A DNA stretch of 61,349 bases, counting the filler. It is 6 parts of 6 records of this genome, joined end to end, with 100 filler letters (N's around TTAATTAATTAA, not from the genome) between each part and the next. Parts side by side here need not be neighbours in the genome. Positions count along the whole stretch, not along the records: positions 14,923 to 35,835 come from SRR20825010_3801; 5 more parts are not named here. One strand, written 5' to 3'. Shown one piece after another: positions 14,823 to 57,128 of this stretch. How positions within the stretch are numbered: position 1 is the stretch's first letter; the number at the start of each line of letters is the position of its first letter. The translations under genes and the position numbers were made by a program. The notes under the pieces were generated by a model. That model did no database searches. It was given only the letters and a program-made list of their open reading frames with translations, and had not been told where the DNA came from.

Positions 14823-14922
14823 NNNNNNNNNNNNNNNNNNNNNNNNNNNNNNNNNNNNNNNNNNNNTTAATTAATTAANNNNNNNNNNNNNNNNNNNNNN
14901 NNNNNNNNNNNNNNNNNNNNNN
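14823..14922. other. Artificial contig linker (also 35836-35935, 43241-43340, 51024-51123, 57029-57128)
   Basis: N-run + TTAATTAATTAA (stops in all six frames) + N-run, identical five times. Confidence 0.99.
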
Positions 14923-17807: not shown

Positions 17808-17860
17808 GGCGACCTCCTTCTGATAGGGTATAACCCGATCACAGAGAGGCCAATCTCTGG

Positions 17861-17970
17861 TGATCGGACGTGCAGGATTGGCCTTACCGCCAGAAGGAGC
17901 GGCGCACCCGAAGGTGCTCCCACACGCCCGACCATAAGAAAACCGCGCATCAACAGGTTGGGCGCGGTTC
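17861..17970 (-). ncRNA. C4-type antisense RNA, cassette 1
   Basis: Long stem 17861-17876/17919-17934; cUUCGg hairpin 17904-17917; bulged seeds CUCCUUCUGG and GGCCAAUC complementary to sites both upstream (17976-17983, 17993-18000) and downstream (17814-17823, 17848-17855). Confidence 0.8.
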
Positions 17971-18030
17971 GAGCGCCTTCTGACAGACGGGAGACCAATC
18001 CCGGCCATGGATGCGTCCATGACGGCGGGA

Positions 18031-18059
18031 ATGTTACGCCCATCGATTTGCGCGGTCAA
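18031..18059 (-). promoter_or_regulatory. Sigma70-type promoter for C4 cassette 1
   Basis: TTGACC-N17-TAACAT on the minus strand. Confidence 0.7.
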
Positions 18060-26984: not shown

Positions 26985-27838
26985 TGGTGGCCCTTGGTGC
27001 AGCGATGGTTGGCGGGCGGAAAAAATCGCTTACGGTTGTCGGCAACAAACTTATCGAGCCTGTTCGCGACCGGCAGGAAAATGATTTCTATCCGACGCCG
27101 CCCGAAGTGTTCGAGGCGCTGTTTCGCCGGATGCCGCACCTTAAAGGCAAACGCATCTGGGACCCGGAATGCGGTGATGGCGTTCCGGCGCGGGTGATGG
27201 AAAGCCATGGCTGCAAGGTGATCGGGACGGATCTGATTGATCGGGGATATGGCACCGGCGGGGTCAATTTCCTGTCGGTCATGCGGCCGCGCGGATCGAT
27301 CATCATCACCAATCCGGCCTATGACGATGATCACCCGGCGGCGTTCATCGAACATGCGATGCGCATGCATGTTGCCGAGGTCTGGCTGTTGCTGAAATCG
27401 ACCTATTTCCACGCAGCCAACCGGCTTGGCCTGTATCGCCGCCATCGTCCGCACTGGAAGCTTGAGCTGACCTGGCGGCCCGATTTCCTTGGGATAGGTC
27501 GCCCGACGATGGAATGCGCTTGGTTTGGCTGGGATCGGGACTGGACCCGGGCGGAAACCCTGCATGACCTGCTGGCGAAACCTTCGATGGATAACCTTGA
27601 TCTGTTCATGCCGGCACCCGGTGCGCGGGTGGTGAATTACCGCAACGATAATGATGCCTGCGGCGCGCCATCGCTGTTTGATTCTGATGATGCAGGGGAT
27701 GAATTGGGGCTTTTGCGGTGCGGGGCATGTGGCGAGGAATTCCACGACAAATATGCGACCGGCATTGGCACATTGGCCCCTGCGGAATGCCCGCGATGTG
27801 GCGAGGAAAAGGACATCATGCAGATAGATGATTTGTAA
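26981..27838 (+). CDS. Amino (N6-A/N4-C) DNA methyltransferase-like protein with C-terminal Zn ribbon
   Basis: DFYPTP, WDPECGDG, IITNPAY, AWFGW; CGACG...CPRCG tail. Confidence 0.78.
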   Translation: MMVALGAAMVGGRKKSLTVVGNKLIEPVRDRQENDFYPTPPEVFEALFRRMPHLKGKRIWDPECGDGVPARVMESHGCKVIGTDLIDRGYGTGGVNFLSVMRPRGSIIITNPAYDDDHPAAFIEHAMRMHVAEVWLLLKSTYFHAANRLGLYRRHRPHWKLELTWRPDFLGIGRPTMECAWFGWDRDWTRAETLHDLLAKPSMDNLDLFMPAPGARVVNYRNDNDACGAPSLFDSDDAGDELGLLRCGACGEEFHDKYATGIGTLAPAECPRCGEEKDIMQIDDL

Positions 27839-27840
27839 GG

Positions 27841-28430
27841 CCCCGGCGGGTGGGGTGTTGGTGGCTGGGCAGTGCCATCAACAGGACCCGACAGGGATCA
27901 GACGGGCCGTATCCTGATGCAGAAATAACCCCGTCATCCGGTGGAGTGCTGCCTCCAAGCTCTCCGCACTCGCGACCGGACCCAGCCCCGTTACCCCGCT
28001 TGAAGGCAGGGTCGGGGTTTTGGGGTGAAACAGCCGCATCGGGCGGCACGGCCTGAGTTTGGCCGACACGAGCAAAAAGAAAGGGCGGCAAGATGTGATT
28101 TTGATTGCCCTGATCATCCGGATTTTTGCCTGCCTGCGATTGCGGTCGGTGGAAATCTTCACCCCGGTCCATGAATTGGCCGGTTCCGACCCGCCAGCGG
28201 GTCACGCGGGTTGCCGTAACGCACCGAATTGGGCGGTGAATGTGCGCCAATCGGCAGAGAAAGGGCGATACGGATGGTGCCACATGACAGCTTGCCGACC
28301 GGCATCCCATCCGTAGGCGGCGTAACCCGCCGTCCATCCGGCTAGCGACCGGACTGCCACCCGAAAACCTTAACCCCGACCCCGGTTTGAAGACCGGGGC
28401 GGGGTCGCCGCAATAGAAGGCCGTGCGGCG
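27841..28430 (+). ncRNA. Candidate large structured non-coding RNA
   Basis: More than 12 adjacent stem-loops in the only long gap of the rightward operon; G:U pairs favour the + strand. Confidence 0.55.
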
Positions 28431-28510
28431 TTTGATGTGTCAAAACCTTGTTTTCCGCTTGGTGTGCTGCCCGGTCTTCGATCCATTTCTGTTCATGCGA
28501 GGGTGACGAC

Positions 28511-28903
28511 ATGACAAATCCCGTGACCGATATCGAATCAGCCGCCGCGCGCGGATCCGCGCCGCGCCCTGTGACCAGCCCGCTTGACCTGATCGGGCTG
28601 TTGCGGATTGCGGCAAGCAGGCATTCCGCCCAGCCGCCGCACGAAAAGGCATTGAATGTGCTGCGCACCGCAATCGACCGGCGGGCGGAATATATCAATG
28701 GCCGACATGCCTGCCGGGTTTCCGGTGCGGTGATATCCGTGCCCGCGATGGTTGATCTTGCCAATGCGGTTCTGGAAAAGGCCGGTCTGCATGATTTGCG
28801 GCTACCTTATCCCGGTGCCAAATTCTCGCTGGCGGAACATTGCCAGGCGGCAAATGACAACCGCCGCGCCCGGTCGTCATTCGATACGGTCGGGGGTGTG
28901 TGA
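28511..28903 (+). CDS. Hypothetical phage protein
   Basis: GAGGG upstream; coupled to the next gene. Confidence 0.7.
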   Translation: MTNPVTDIESAAARGSAPRPVTSPLDLIGLLRIAASRHSAQPPHEKALNVLRTAIDRRAEYINGRHACRVSGAVISVPAMVDLANAVLEKAGLHDLRLPYPGAKFSLAEHCQAANDNRRARSSFDTVGGV

Positions 28904-29574
28904 TGGTTGCGGAAAAGAAGCAGAAGCCCGCAAAGCAGAGTTTCGCGCAAGTGATGGAAATCACGCTGCGCGAAGCGGCCAATGAAAACCGCCCGGTACC
29001 GGATGTTGTCGACAACCTGATCACCGATCTGACGGTCGCGGGCTTTGCGGTGCGCCGGACTTACGAGCGCGTCGATTATCACCGGGATATCATCGTTCTG
29101 TATGAGCCGGGGCAGGCGGGCGTTTCCGGGGCCAGCCATCATGATGCGATGATGGTTCTGGAAGCGGGCAGCGCGGTCGATCTGCGCGGTGAACATGGCT
29201 GGCTGGTGGTGTGGTCCGAACAGGGGCGCAAGCGTTCCGCCTGGTTCGATGCCGAGGGCAAAAGCCCGATCCTGACCGATTACCGGGTGTCCAATCCGCG
29301 CACGCCGGTCGCCGGTGCGGTCGCGGAACTCAAGCGTGAGGTGGCGGGGCGCGCCAGCAAGGCCACCCGTTTCGGCCTCGACGAAACGCAGCCGGGGCAA
29401 CCGGACGATAATGCTGCCCGGTTGGGCGAAGAAATCGGCGATGTGCTGGTCATGATTGAACTGGTAAAGCGGCACTGCGGCGTAACGGATGCAAGCATAC
29501 AGGTCGGTCTTGAGCGCAAGCCGCGCCAGCTTCGCAAATATATGCAGCATATCCCAGAAGGGCTGGAACTGTGA
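28900..29574 (+). CDS. Protein with C-terminal MazG-like (NTP pyrophosphohydrolase) domain
   Basis: ASKATRFG...N.ARLGEEIGDVLVMIEL pattern; the first acidic motif looks eroded. Confidence 0.6.
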   Translation: MMVAEKKQKPAKQSFAQVMEITLREAANENRPVPDVVDNLITDLTVAGFAVRRTYERVDYHRDIIVLYEPGQAGVSGASHHDAMMVLEAGSAVDLRGEHGWLVVWSEQGRKRSAWFDAEGKSPILTDYRVSNPRTPVAGAVAELKREVAGRASKATRFGLDETQPGQPDDNAARLGEEIGDVLVMIELVKRHCGVTDASIQVGLERKPRQLRKYMQHIPEGLEL

Positions 29575-29968: not shown

Positions 29969-30306
29969 TGTGTGATTGTCCGAAGCATGTCCGGGTCGGG
30001 ACGTATGAGAATCAGGTGACGTTCGATGTGCCCGCCCATATGGCGGAGTATCGCGCCCGGCGGATTGCGGCGGGGCTTTCGGGCCTCATCTGCATTGACC
30101 GTTGCCTGGTCGATGAAGTGCTGGCGCTGTGGATGGCGGGTATTCGCACGAATGGATCGTGCTGCGGGCATAACCATGTGCCGCCGATCATCAGCGTGTT
30201 TCCCGAATATATCCCGGCCATGAAGGCGATGGGATACCAGGTGCAGTTCAACCCGTCCCGGCCCTATGCCGAGGATGGCTTTATTCCCAAGACTGTGAGG
30301 GCGTGA
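29968..30306 (+). CDS. Hypothetical phage protein with ID.C...T.GSCCGH motif
   Basis: TGATG-coupled start MCDCPK. Confidence 0.7.
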   Translation: MCDCPKHVRVGTYENQVTFDVPAHMAEYRARRIAAGLSGLICIDRCLVDEVLALWMAGIRTNGSCCGHNHVPPIISVFPEYIPAMKAMGYQVQFNPSRPYAEDGFIPKTVRA

Positions 30307-30311
30307 TGCTC

Positions 30312-30905
30312 TCACAGCGACGCGAGGTTTCCCGGCAGCCGGTTATTCTTGCCCAGTTCGGCTATCTCCTGACGGGATCCAATGACCTTGATCTGGATGC
30401 TGCTCGACACGTTGCCAAGGCCCTTGGTGATGGCGAAAAATCCACGATAGGCGGCGTCGGCTGCAAGGATATCAGACGAAAACGACTGGTTGCCAAGATA
30501 GCAGGCCAGTTCTTTCATGTGGATAACCGCTTTCTGGGCCGTGATGATGCCGGTTACAAAGGTTTCTGTCTCGGTTTCGTCGTCGGCATGGGTAAAAGTG
30601 AAGGCGGCATTTTGCACGGTCGGTTTTTGCTGCGGCGCAAGGGATGCCTCGACGCGTTGCGCTTCGCCGAACAGGTGTGTCGCAGCAATCAGCCAAGCGA
30701 TACCGGGGCTTTTACATCCATTGATCACGAGGCTTGGCGGGTTGGTCCAGACCAGCCTGCCGCCAGAGGCGGTTATGGCTTCTGGTGTGCAAACGGCGGC
30801 GGGATATGTGGTGTCGTCTGGCAGTTCGCTGTTTTCCTCGTGGTAGATTTCAATATCCATCGTGATCACGTTTCTATCCCCCGGTTGTGTGTGGATGGTG
30901 ATCAT
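30312..30905 (-). CDS. Hypothetical protein oriented against the operon (moron-like)
   Basis: 197-aa ORF with natural composition; start may be the Met at MDIEIY. Confidence 0.6.
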   Translation of the reverse strand: MITIHTQPGDRNVITMDIEIYHEENSELPDDTTYPAAVCTPEAITASGGRLVWTNPPSLVINGCKSPGIAWLIAATHLFGEAQRVEASLAPQQKPTVQNAAFTFTHADDETETETFVTGIITAQKAVIHMKELACYLGNQSFSSDILAADAAYRGFFAITKGLGNVSSSIQIKVIGSRQEIAELGKNNRLPGNLASL

Positions 30906-30932
30906 GCGCCGAAGGTTGCATGCACGTCAATA

Positions 30933-30961
30933 TTGACTATCGCGGGCAGGGGGCGTAAGGT
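30933..30961 (+). promoter_or_regulatory. Sigma70-type promoter for C4 cassette 2
   Basis: TTGACT-N17-TAAGGT. Confidence 0.7.
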
Positions 30962-31029
30962 AACGCCCATCGGTGGGAAAAATCCGCCGTGGGGGCCTTC
31001 AAACTCCCTGTTCAAGACGGTTAGCCGTC

Positions 31030-31160
31030 ACGTCAGTTACGGCTATTTTTGTGCCCGGAATCCGGGTGCATCTTCTCGCTTAGGGCGGGAGGGCGGTGAA
31101 TATAAGACCCTTCGGGGGAATAAACCCGCCTGCCTCTTGACAGGTTTGAAGCCTCCCGCC
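31030..31160 (+). ncRNA. C4-type antisense RNA, cassette 2
   Basis: Stem GGCGGGAGG 31084-31092/CCTCCCGCC 31152-31160; cUUCGg hairpin; seeds CCUCUUGA and GUUUGAAG complementary to 30997-31017 and to 31173-31179/31208-31215. Confidence 0.8.
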
Positions 31161-31223
31161 ACCAGCGCGGTCCTTCAAAGCTTCGTTGGTGGTCTGTTTA
31201 ACAGCCATCAAGAGGGCTTTGAC

Positions 31224-31988
31224 ATGACCAAGCATGAAACTGCGCGCGATCTGCCCGCGACGCTGACTTTCCAGAATACTCAAATTTCCATTATTGATCG
31301 TGGCGGTGTGCCTTGGGTGACCGGCCCTGATATTGCGCGGGCTTTAGGTTTTGCGGATCCGCGCAAGCTGTCGAACATGTTCAATCGACACAAGGACGAA
31401 TTTACCGATGATATGGCCCATGTCCTCAAATTGAGGACGGGGCGGCAGGCGGCTCCCGCCAGCGTCCGGATATTCAGTCCGCGCGGCGCGCAATTGATCG
31501 CCATGCTGGCCAAGACGCCACGGGCGAAGGATTTCCGGCGCTGGGTTCTCGATGTGCTGGAAGGGCTGGCACCCGCGCCCGGTAACATGGCCGATGATGC
31601 GGATCTGCGCCGCAAGATCGTGGCGGAGGTCACGCAGCAGGTTATGGCATCGATCACGCCGCATCTGCCGGTGGCTCCTGCGCCGCAGCCCGCCCTGCCA
31701 TTGGCGCGGGGTGATCTGCCGCGCCTGACCGAGGGGCAGGCCCTGTTTATGATCGAGGGGCGGCAGGTGATTGTCGATACCCGCGATGCGGAGCCAGAGC
31801 GCGGCGAGCGTGCGGTTGTGATCCGGGTCGAGGATGGCGCAGGCCCGATTGTGGTCACCATCCTGGGCGATCCGCCGATCAAAACATGGTTCGACCGCTG
31901 CAAGATTTATGATTCCGGCGTCAAATGGCTGATCCCCGTCGGGGTCGTCATCGGGCGCGTTGTTTGGGAGGGTGATTATCGTGGTTGA
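31224..31988 (+). CDS. Antirepressor-like protein 2 (Bro-N + shared C-terminal domain)
   Basis: LTFQN, PWVTGPDIARALGF, RHKDEF, RIFSPRGA, AKDFRRWVLDVL. Confidence 0.88.
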   Translation: MTKHETARDLPATLTFQNTQISIIDRGGVPWVTGPDIARALGFADPRKLSNMFNRHKDEFTDDMAHVLKLRTGRQAAPASVRIFSPRGAQLIAMLAKTPRAKDFRRWVLDVLEGLAPAPGNMADDADLRRKIVAEVTQQVMASITPHLPVAPAPQPALPLARGDLPRLTEGQALFMIEGRQVIVDTRDAEPERGERAVVIRVEDGAGPIVVTILGDPPIKTWFDRCKIYDSGVKWLIPVGVVIGRVVWEGDYRG

Positions 31989-35741: not shown

Positions 35742-35935
35742 TCCAACACCACCACCCCGCACCCCTGTGATTAAGCGGTGCTTCGCAATTGTTCATGCTG
35801 TGGCAGGGTCTGAATGGTGGAATGTAACGCTGTACNNNNNNNNNNNNNNNNNNNNNNNNNNNNNNNNNNNNNNNNNNNNTTAATTAATTAANNNNNNNNN
35901 NNNNNNNNNNNNNNNNNNNNNNNNNNNNNNNNNNN

Positions 35936-43240: not shown

Positions 43241-43340
43241 NNNNNNNNNNNNNNNNNNNNNNNNNNNNNNNNNNNNNNNNNNNNTTAATTAATTAANNNN
43301 NNNNNNNNNNNNNNNNNNNNNNNNNNNNNNNNNNNNNNNN

Positions 43341-51023: not shown

Positions 51024-51123
51024 NNNNNNNNNNNNNNNNNNNNNNNNNNNNNNNNNNNNNNNNNNNNTTAATTAATTAANNNNNNNNNNNNNNNNNNNNN
51101 NNNNNNNNNNNNNNNNNNNNNNN

Positions 51124-57028: not shown

Positions 57029-57128
57029 NNNNNNNNNNNNNNNNNNNNNNNNNNNNNNNNNNNNNNNNNNNNTTAATTAATTAANNNNNNNNNNNNNNNN
57101 NNNNNNNNNNNNNNNNNNNNNNNNNNNN

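Follow-up and report, generated by a model that had tools for sequence, protein, structure and literature searches.

A probable composite island in a Thalassospira prophage: a Proteo-phage-1 RNA with two conserved extensions, an exchangeable small-gene cassette and a structured leader

The stretch of DNA analysed here (the window: 61,349 nucleotides (nt), six parts joined end to end) contains a rightward phage operon with a gap of 672 bases at 27839-28510. The original prediction had described this operon as stop/start-overlapped and had read most of the gap, 27841-28430, as one novel, large, non-coding RNA. The gap was confirmed by the limits of the flanking open reading frames (ORFs): it lies between the stop codon (27838) of a DNA-methyltransferase-like ORF and an ATG (28511) preceded by a Shine-Dalgarno (SD) sequence, and the rightward genes on either side of it overlap at their stop and start codons. 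However, the region, part of the prophage of a marine bacterium, is probably a composite island and not a single large novel RNA. Its 5' end is a known RNA, Proteo-phage-1 (Rfam family RF03044; block A), followed by two conserved hairpins (B and C). Its middle is a cassette that is replaced in relatives, holds a 73-codon ORF in the window, and is closed by a further hairpin (E). Its 3' end (block F) is the 5' untranslated region (UTR) of the next gene. The features are listed in Table 1.

Table 1. Features of the gap and of the genes that flank it (coordinates count along the window; paired segments are joined by "with").
Feature	Position	Strand	Remarks
Upstream ORF, DNA-methyltransferase-like, 285 aa	26981-27838	+	phrog_799, E 5.3e-39; outside the RNA
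Block A, Proteo-phage-1 RNA (Rfam RF03044)	27841-27939	+	42.8 bits, gathering score 42
P1 helix	27847-27851 with 27886-27890	+	block A
P1a, inserted hairpin	27856-27865 with 27874-27883	+	block A
P2 helix	27892-27896 with 27912-27916	+	block A
Pseudoknot-type pairing, P2 loop with 3' tail	27901-27906 with 27930-27935	+	block A
Hairpin B	27937-27980	+	beyond the Rfam model; covarying
Hairpin B, outer stem	27937-27942 with 27975-27980	+	
Hairpin B, inner stem	27944-27949 with 27966-27971	+	
CCUCC, anti-Shine-Dalgarno-like	27952-27956	+	in the loop of hairpin B
Hairpin C, strong GC, terminator-like	27986-28021	+	27986-28017 plus TTTT
Leader hairpin D1, small	28033-28037 with 28043-28047	+	
Leader hairpin D2	28049-28053 with 28061-28065	+	
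Conserved 9-mer ACGAGCAAA	28068-28076	+	after D2
GAAAGGG, Shine-Dalgarno-like	28079-28085	+	cassette leader
73-codon GTG ORF, cassette cargo	28095-28316	+	hydrophobic N-terminal stretch, invariant GSDPPAG
Hairpin E, very stable nested GC	28373-28405	+	closes the cassette slot
Block F, 5' UTR of the next gene	28409-28510	+	11/11 loci; no Rfam match
Block F, long-range stem	28416-28426 with 28469-28479	+	13 pairs
Conserved TGTTTTCCGC	28450-28459	+	enclosed by the F stem
AGGGTGA, Shine-Dalgarno sequence of the downstream gene	28500-28506	+	
Downstream gene, 130 aa	28511-28903	+	no family; followed by a MazG-like gene

A provirus record of IMG/VR (G001) is identical to the window over the gap. Relatives were gathered via the methyltransferase, an invariant 18-mer of the RNA and a motif of the cassette. 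The resulting set comprised 11 distinct versions of the region including the window, ten with the Proteo-phage-1 core and one (record G041, locus L054) without it; two more distant variants, L047 and L048, were available besides these 11. Titled genome matches to the exact RNA motif were from Thalassospira, and the host is therefore an alphaproteobacterium. Of 37 genomes of the host family, three scored above the RF03044 cut-off; in a class-wide sample of 151 genomes, only the centre genome itself did. A metagenome scan for the RNA returned three loci only, and blastn of the gap against phage and plasmid collections gave no match. In coliphage N4, bases 1-50000 of EF056009 contained nothing that reached the RF03044 gathering score.

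The match to RF03044 spans the full model (positions 1-82 of 82) with an E value of 2.1e-4 over the whole window, and occurs as a single copy. The window hence holds a further member of a known family. The original prediction had assigned the RNA to no known family and had named an Rfam match beforehand as speaking against its novelty; such a match covers the first 99 nt. At the homologous position in nine relatives the scores were 45.7-66.2 bits (45.7, 46.5, 55.2, 60.7, 65.2, 66.2), and relatives without an insert in the P1 loop reached 55-66 bits. The marginal score of the window (42.8 bits) is explained by the 10-bp hairpin P1a inserted in this loop.

The core of block A consists of two stem-loops linked by a single A. 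The window shares with Proteo-phage-1, which Rfam files as "Gene; sRNA", the P1 helix, the single-A junction, the P2 helix with its conserved loop, a 3' tail able to pair with that loop, and the location in a proteobacterial prophage. The P2 loop and tail differ compensatorily from the Rfam consensus line. The pseudoknot is unmarked in the RF03044 structure line, and it may be a defining feature of the family. Two differences stand out: the window and its two nearest relatives carry the 10-bp hairpin in the P1 loop, and about 80 nt of conserved RNA, taking in the CCUCC-loop hairpin B and the terminator-like hairpin C, follow the end of the model. The motif reportedly originates from the 2017 comparative-genomics survey of Weinberg and colleagues. 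A term search of the main text of this survey (PMC5737381) gave no mention of Proteo-phage-1, and neither this name nor "RF03044" was found in the searchable literature; the description of the family presumably resides in supplements outside that search.

Conservation of the secondary structure was evaluated for A and B together in an alignment of 10 distinct sequences (33 pairs, 329 cells). Base pairing was possible in 94.5% of the cells, compared with 29-50% when the partners were slid by 1-3 columns, and 9 of the 33 pairs had both-side changes; only 3 of 500 shuffles yielded that many. P1 was paired in 100% of cells with both-side changes in three of its five pairs, and hairpin B in 94% of cells with both-side changes in 4 of 14 pairs. 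In P2 (96% paired), pairs were invariant or changed on one side only. For the pseudoknot, all ten sequences allowed five pairs; two G:U variants occurred, and double changes were absent. At the other end of the gap, the 20-pair structure made up of the outer stem of E and the stem of F was paired in 97.6% of cells (11 sequences), and in 36-62% when slid. Here, 2 of 7 pairs of the outer E stem changed on both sides; the F stem (98.5% paired) had one pair with a both-side change, four with one-side changes, and many G:U pairs.

The original prediction had pointed to G:U pairs on the plus strand. G:U pairs in the covarying structures P1, B, E and F point to the plus strand, and the G:U cells in B, P2, the pseudoknot and block F are compatible with this strand only. 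The comparison set is small, since the relatives are few and closely related, and the covariation counts consequently rest on few lineages. They support the local helices, and nothing beyond them.

All stems listed in the original prediction are present where it had placed them, and a scan for perfect inverted repeats recovered eight. Six of its ten stem groups are conserved or covarying in the relatives (P1/P1a, the pseudoknot, B, D1, D2 and E). Of the other four, the stems GCAAAAA/TTTTTGC and CGCCGCA/TGCGGCG are not conserved in relatives, TACGGATGG/CCATCCGTA is specific to this phage, and GACCCG/CGGGTC is confounded with codons, spelling part of the invariant GSDPPAG of the cassette ORF. 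The idea of structured RNA is thus partly borne out by the conserved, covarying helices P1, B, E and F, but not in the form of one RNA of about 600 nt.

Hairpin B keeps its loop while its stem drifts. Of 12 variants, among them the distant L047 and L048, every one has CUCCC in this loop and 10 have CCUCC, and the stem exists in at least four sequence versions across these variants. In three of the 12, the loop is of the type seen in L005 and reads CUCCUCCC. Hairpin C occurs once in the window and in 10 of 11 loci (it is absent in L005); it varies in the loop only, except in L058, where a C-A mismatch has become G-U. B and C, the conserved extensions of the RF03044 core, match no Rfam family.

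Two further sequences were noted in relatives. In L054, the stretch of about 150 nt before hairpin C holds a different sequence in place of Proteo-phage-1 and hairpin B, and this may be an alternative RNA module. A short, operator-like sequence of repeated GCAAAT-type half-sites, not present in the window, occurs in an insert in the 5' UTR of L006 and after hairpin B in L047.

The middle of the gap is exchanged between loci. In the closest relatives L003 and L004, blastn found gap bases 1-192 kept at 93-94% identity and bases 556-672 at 86-93%, but not the middle 360 bases; unrelated sequence replaces 28031-28393. Flanks that are 86-94% identical around an unrelated middle contradict the claim of one continuous RNA. 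L006 shares only gap positions 52-364 in the blastn comparison, and the part specific to the window, 28203-28372, had no match in the 37 genomes of the host family.

The exchange takes place behind a conserved leader. Five different sequences of the D2 stem were seen, and behind every one of them stand ACGAGCAAA and an SD-like GAAAGG. Leader and SD precede three unrelated cassette ORFs. The cargo is a member of the small-ORF family in the window, L006, L014 and L054, a member of a 73-aa protein family (25 database relatives, down to 44% identity) in L016, L057 and L048, and a 76-aa ORF in L058. In L003 and L004, it is a short sequence with a strong SD and a minimal frame (three codons and one codon, respectively), and in L005 and L046 nothing is inserted between ACGAGCAAA and hairpin E. 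A fixed junction hence holds four kinds of cargo, or none, across 11 loci. Hairpin E was present in all 11, with several different inner stems. D2 with its 9-mer, like F, matched no Rfam family. An ATG-TGA at 28093-28098 in the window parallels the minimal frames after the SD in L003 and L004, and such combinations of SD and minimal frame may reflect ribosome loading of the start-stop type or the remains of lost cargo.

That the modules of the island are separable follows from two loci: the 44.7 kb of record G041 contain C, D, cargo, E and F but gave no match to RF03044 at E ≤ 1, and L005 has A and B but not C. The genes on either side also behave differently. The downstream pair, the 130-aa gene and the MazG-like gene, is constant and accompanies the intergenic module in every relative. 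The upstream position varies and is taken by the methyltransferase or, in L014 and L016, by an unrelated ORF; in several relatives, block A overlaps the last codons of the upstream gene.

The region had been described as non-coding. This does not fit the 73-codon ORF inside the gap, which shows conservation at the protein level by sequence comparison, and a check of the short ORFs for coding signal found such a signal in this one. The conserved SD lies at the usual spacing before the ATG-TGA, and the GTG start follows two bases further on, overlapping it. An exhaustive HMMER search of 1.84 billion representatives identified an 83-aa protein (P0026; E 1.2e-5), annotated as a hypothetical protein of another Thalassospira genome, which aligned from residue 1 with 29/51 identities (BLASTP). 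Three lineages of the small ORF share 21 invariant columns, GSDPPAG among them. Between the window and L006, the ORF frame had the best substitution score of the six frames (-13, compared with -19 to -47), and a 3-nt indel between the two is in frame. No Pfam or PHROG match was obtained for the 73-codon ORF or for an 85-aa version starting at a TTG, and P0026 was not found in viral contigs. The predicted structure of the small protein is of low confidence, and the nearest Atlas models are N-terminal membrane helices.

Contigs from the RNA libraries of two seawater studies matched the cassette at 100% identity (28088-28359 and 28145-28308, depths 2 and 4). Because DNA carry-over is possible, they are only a weak hint of expression. 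Runs X15 and X18 had no contig on 27600-28087 or 28360-28900, where low-depth contigs leave holes, and X14 had none on 27776-27948, this library being whole-genome-amplified and perhaps DNA. Since low-depth contigs leave holes, the absent contigs say nothing about the Proteo-phage-1 part.

We propose that the island lies in the early/accessory operon of a temperate Thalassospira phage and would comprise three units. Unit 1 (27841-28021) would be an extended Proteo-phage-1 RNA, composed of the pseudoknotted core A, hairpin B and the terminator-like hairpin C. It would constitute the 3'-terminal part of the upstream early transcript and, if transcription ends at C, would yield an RNA of about 180 nt. 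The working part of this RNA may be the single-stranded CCUCC loop, which would pair with GGAGG-like ribosome-binding sites, either in trans, in the manner of alphaproteobacterial anti-SD small RNAs, or in cis. An anti-SD small-RNA mechanism for unit 1 is to our minds possible rather than probable. Unit 2 (28033-28405) would be a moron-like slot, in which the leader (D1, D2, ACGAGCAAA and SD) and hairpin E bracket interchangeable cargo, in this phage a gene for a small protein of 73 codons with hydrophobic N-terminus that would be expressed from the prophage. Unit 3 (28409-28510) would be block F, a structured 5' UTR belonging to the conserved gene downstream. Block F has an invariant 20-mer and a conserved box of the type TGTTGTCCGC in 11/11 loci, and it may act as a small regulatory leader by itself.

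The proposed role of hairpin B has a precedent in the cuckoo small RNAs (RSs0680/CcsR-type) of Alphaproteobacteria. According to the report on them (PMC4615179), these RNAs have 2-4 adjacent hairpins with the loop motif CCUCCUCCC, are bound by Hfq, and are defined by a variable stem and a conserved anti-SD loop. Hairpin B shares with them the stem that drifts by compensatory changes, the loop that keeps a C/U-rich anti-SD motif, and the alphaproteobacterial host class, and the L005-type loop CUCCUCCC agrees with the cuckoo motif in 8 of 9 letters. However, there is one hairpin here, its motif is shorter (CCUCC), it is fused to a pseudoknotted 5' domain, and it is carried by a phage. The full cuckoo 9-mer occurs in none of the 12 variants of the B loop, and no Rfam family of the cuckoo kind was matched. 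Having one hairpin only and the shorter motif, B is not a cuckoo member. By analogy, it may nevertheless work as they do.

Morons of temperate phages are extra genes between conserved genes that are expressed independently, typically from a promoter and terminator of their own. Unit 2 resembles them in that a small gene is present, absent or replaced at a fixed junction with conserved neighbors and a strong closing hairpin (11/11 loci). It differs in that all cargos use one conserved leader and SD instead of their own signals, and no promoter was found. The cargo in the window is also just 73 codons long, with weak coding statistics.

Proteo-phage-1 might generally be the 5' domain of a longer RNA that reprograms the translation of host or phage mRNAs by an anti-SD hairpin, or a cis-acting gate, formed with two terminators, into an accessory-gene slot. 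We consider this generalization rather unlikely. If true, it would give Proteo-phage-1 its first function and would establish "RNA switch plus cassette slot" as an architecture that temperate phages can reuse.

Several findings weigh against our interpretation of the island as three such units. The relatives represent essentially one phage group from one bacterial genus. RF03044 exceeds its cut-off in the window by only 0.8 bit, and P2 and the pseudoknot show no both-side changes in the 10-sequence set. In L055, a distant sub-threshold match (41.2 bits), an ORF follows the motif at a distance of about 65 nt, and neither a B-type loop nor a terminator is present; this arrangement looks cis-regulatory, unlike a small-RNA gene. 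A promoter scan found no promoter-like site in 27000-29500, and a terminator scan called nothing inside the gap, neither hairpin C nor hairpin E. The tail of C has just 3-4 U, and E lacks a U-tract on the plus strand, with a weak one on the minus strand. As for the small ORF, its start is a GTG overlapping the ATG-TGA, its C-terminal third is not conserved, and L014 has lost the stop codon. Comparison of L006, L014 and L054 gave 4, 8 and 5 differences, of which 2, 3 and 0 are synonymous, so that non-synonymous changes prevail. A word-index protein search with the 73-aa sequence returned no candidate gene-caller product, and the RNA-library contigs, whose depth is low (2 and 4), do not prove transcription. 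Finally, the consensus fold of the cassette pairs the SD region with codons 4-6 in a conserved stem, and a stem inside the ORF has three double changes.

The alternative that survives best is a cis-acting control of read-through, in which the core and hairpin B would act on RNA polymerase or on the folding of C and so set what share of transcription continues beyond C and E to the cassette and the genes downstream, similar to an antiterminator or attenuator of the put, EAR or canT kind. We regard it as unlikely, although the position of the element agrees with it: the RNA immediately follows or overlaps the upstream stop codon in a densely packed operon, with no promoter found, two terminator-like hairpins precede the constant downstream pair in 10 of 11 loci, and the motif of L055 lies in a 5' UTR. 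The HK022 put RNAs (PMC9378689), which the original prediction had named as a known kind of phage RNA, are about 70 nt long, consist of two stem-loops as the core of block A does, and act on downstream terminators. RNA-only antiterminators exist in other mobile elements, among them EAR of B. subtilis and canT of Tn916 (PMC11658703). The likeness to these systems, a structured RNA upstream of terminator-like hairpins in the early operon of a mobile element, is one of description only; the element is not promoter-proximal here, and element and hairpins occur separately in relatives. The presumed regulator is thus freely separable from what it would act on: G041 lacks RF03044 but retains C, cassette, E and F, and L005 retains A and B but lacks C. 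In addition, there is a single RF03044 copy in the window, and the terminator activity of C and E is putative.

The cassette (28033-28405) could also be a module of toxin type or one acting purely at the RNA level. In the first version, it would encode a hydrophobic peptide similar to type I toxins, the mRNA of which is silenced by the SD-sequestering fold; in the second, the reading frame would be incidental. Some of the observations above are compatible with this, namely the conserved stem between the SD and codons 4-6, the second stem with its three double changes, the hydrophobic N-terminus together with the low-confidence membrane-helix models, the mostly non-synonymous substitutions among close relatives, and RNA-library contigs in two studies that cover only the cassette part of a 1.3-kb stretch. 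The two stems may reflect an RNA-level role of the cassette. Nevertheless, a module of either type appears distinctly improbable. A type I toxin-antitoxin system would combine a small hydrophobic toxin peptide with an overlapping antisense RNA; the cassette has the hydrophobic N-terminus and an SD-sequestering stem, and neither an antisense RNA gene nor a promoter or family match was found here. An Arg interrupts the hydrophobic run, which is short, and conservation of the protein reaches 30 residues beyond it, including GSDPPAG. The z-score of the cassette for folding is ordinary (see below), and the covariation term of its consensus fold is just -2.38 kcal/mol, from effectively two lineages.

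The folding energy of the gap as a whole is low. Its minimum free energy (MFE) was below that of all shuffles, with z = -3.66 (+) and -3.56 (-) for 20 dinucleotide shuffles each and z = -3.14 with 50 shuffles. However, 14 other 672-nt segments of the same sequence had a mean z of -1.38 (sd 1.44), and two of them were as low as the gap or lower (-4.38, -3.23). We then scored the blocks separately on both strands with 200 shuffles per block. Hairpin C (block 27983-28022) had z = -3.2 (+) and -4.0 (-) and hairpin E (block 28365-28440) z = -3.7 (+) and -4.8 (-), compared with -1.3 (+) and -2.2 (-) for block A and -1.3 (+) and -0.7 (-) for the cassette (28088-28359), which folded no better than shuffled sequence. 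The excess folding stability of the gap is confined to hairpins C and E. Perfect stems of at least 6 bp numbered 10 in the gap against a mean of 6.9 (sd 2.6), and 16% of 607 sliding windows held as many or more. The gap thus folds better than its shuffles (-3.1 to -3.7), but not exceptionally so for this DNA: two of the 14 control segments equal it, and the cassette resembles shuffled sequence. The control segment with the lowest z (-4.38) starts at 31000. Separately, a match to sRNA-Xcc1 (RF02221; 65 bits) was seen at 31084-31168 (+), inside a 561-aa Bro-N/anti-repressor-like ORF (30303-31988).

A single large structured RNA similar to GOLLD or ROOL, for which the MFE of the whole gap and the conserved or covarying stems of the original list would speak, is extremely improbable, because RF03044 takes the first 99 nt, the middle 360 nt are swapped in the nearest relatives, fold like shuffles (z = -1.3) and hold a protein-conserved ORF; moreover, two listed stems are unconserved, two of 14 control segments fold equally well, no long-range pairing between the modules was found, there is no single conserved architecture such as that of GOLLD or ROOL, and neither of these families was matched in Rfam searches (E ≤ 10 in 27600-28700, E ≤ 1 in the window).

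Two other candidates in the gap were discarded. A 173-aa ORF on the minus strand (27816-28337) has no Pfam or PHROG family and was rejected as a gene, because it spans sequence that is missing from L003 and L004. A tRNA-Sec-like match on the minus strand (28351-28422), with 16.9 bits far below the cut-off of 47, is hairpin E taken for a cloverleaf; ARAGORN found no tRNA.

Outside the gap, the C-terminal tail of the methyltransferase-like ORF is zinc-ribbon-like, with a weak match to Zn_ribbon_8. This tail (27653-27831) is absent from L003 and L004, where the protein has 221 instead of 285 aa, and a contig of run X16 also skips it. A cluster of P1-type immunity RNAs was noted at 17856-18036 on the minus strand, with a C4 antisense RNA (66.6 bits), the c4-a1b1 target motif (26.8 bits) and a sub-threshold isrK (38.3 bits). 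In L006, L008 and L009, the trio of C4, isrK and c4-a1b1 lies on the plus strand a few kb downstream of the methyltransferase, an arrangement that differs from that of the window. Paired runs of 44 N with 12 bases between them mark masked stretches at 14823-14922, 35836-35935, 43241-43340, 51024-51123 and 57029-57128.

Taken as the composite island that we favor, the region is mostly explained by a known Rfam family and ordinary phage mosaicism. The useful lead is that in this phage group a covarying hairpin with a CCUCC loop always follows the catalogued motif, and this extension gives a concrete handle on the function of an orphan phage RNA family. The conserved leader and closing hairpin, which accept different small genes, are an example of accessory-gene swapping at one junction, and with the 73-codon ORF the prophages of Thalassospira gain a small-protein family that is unannotated.

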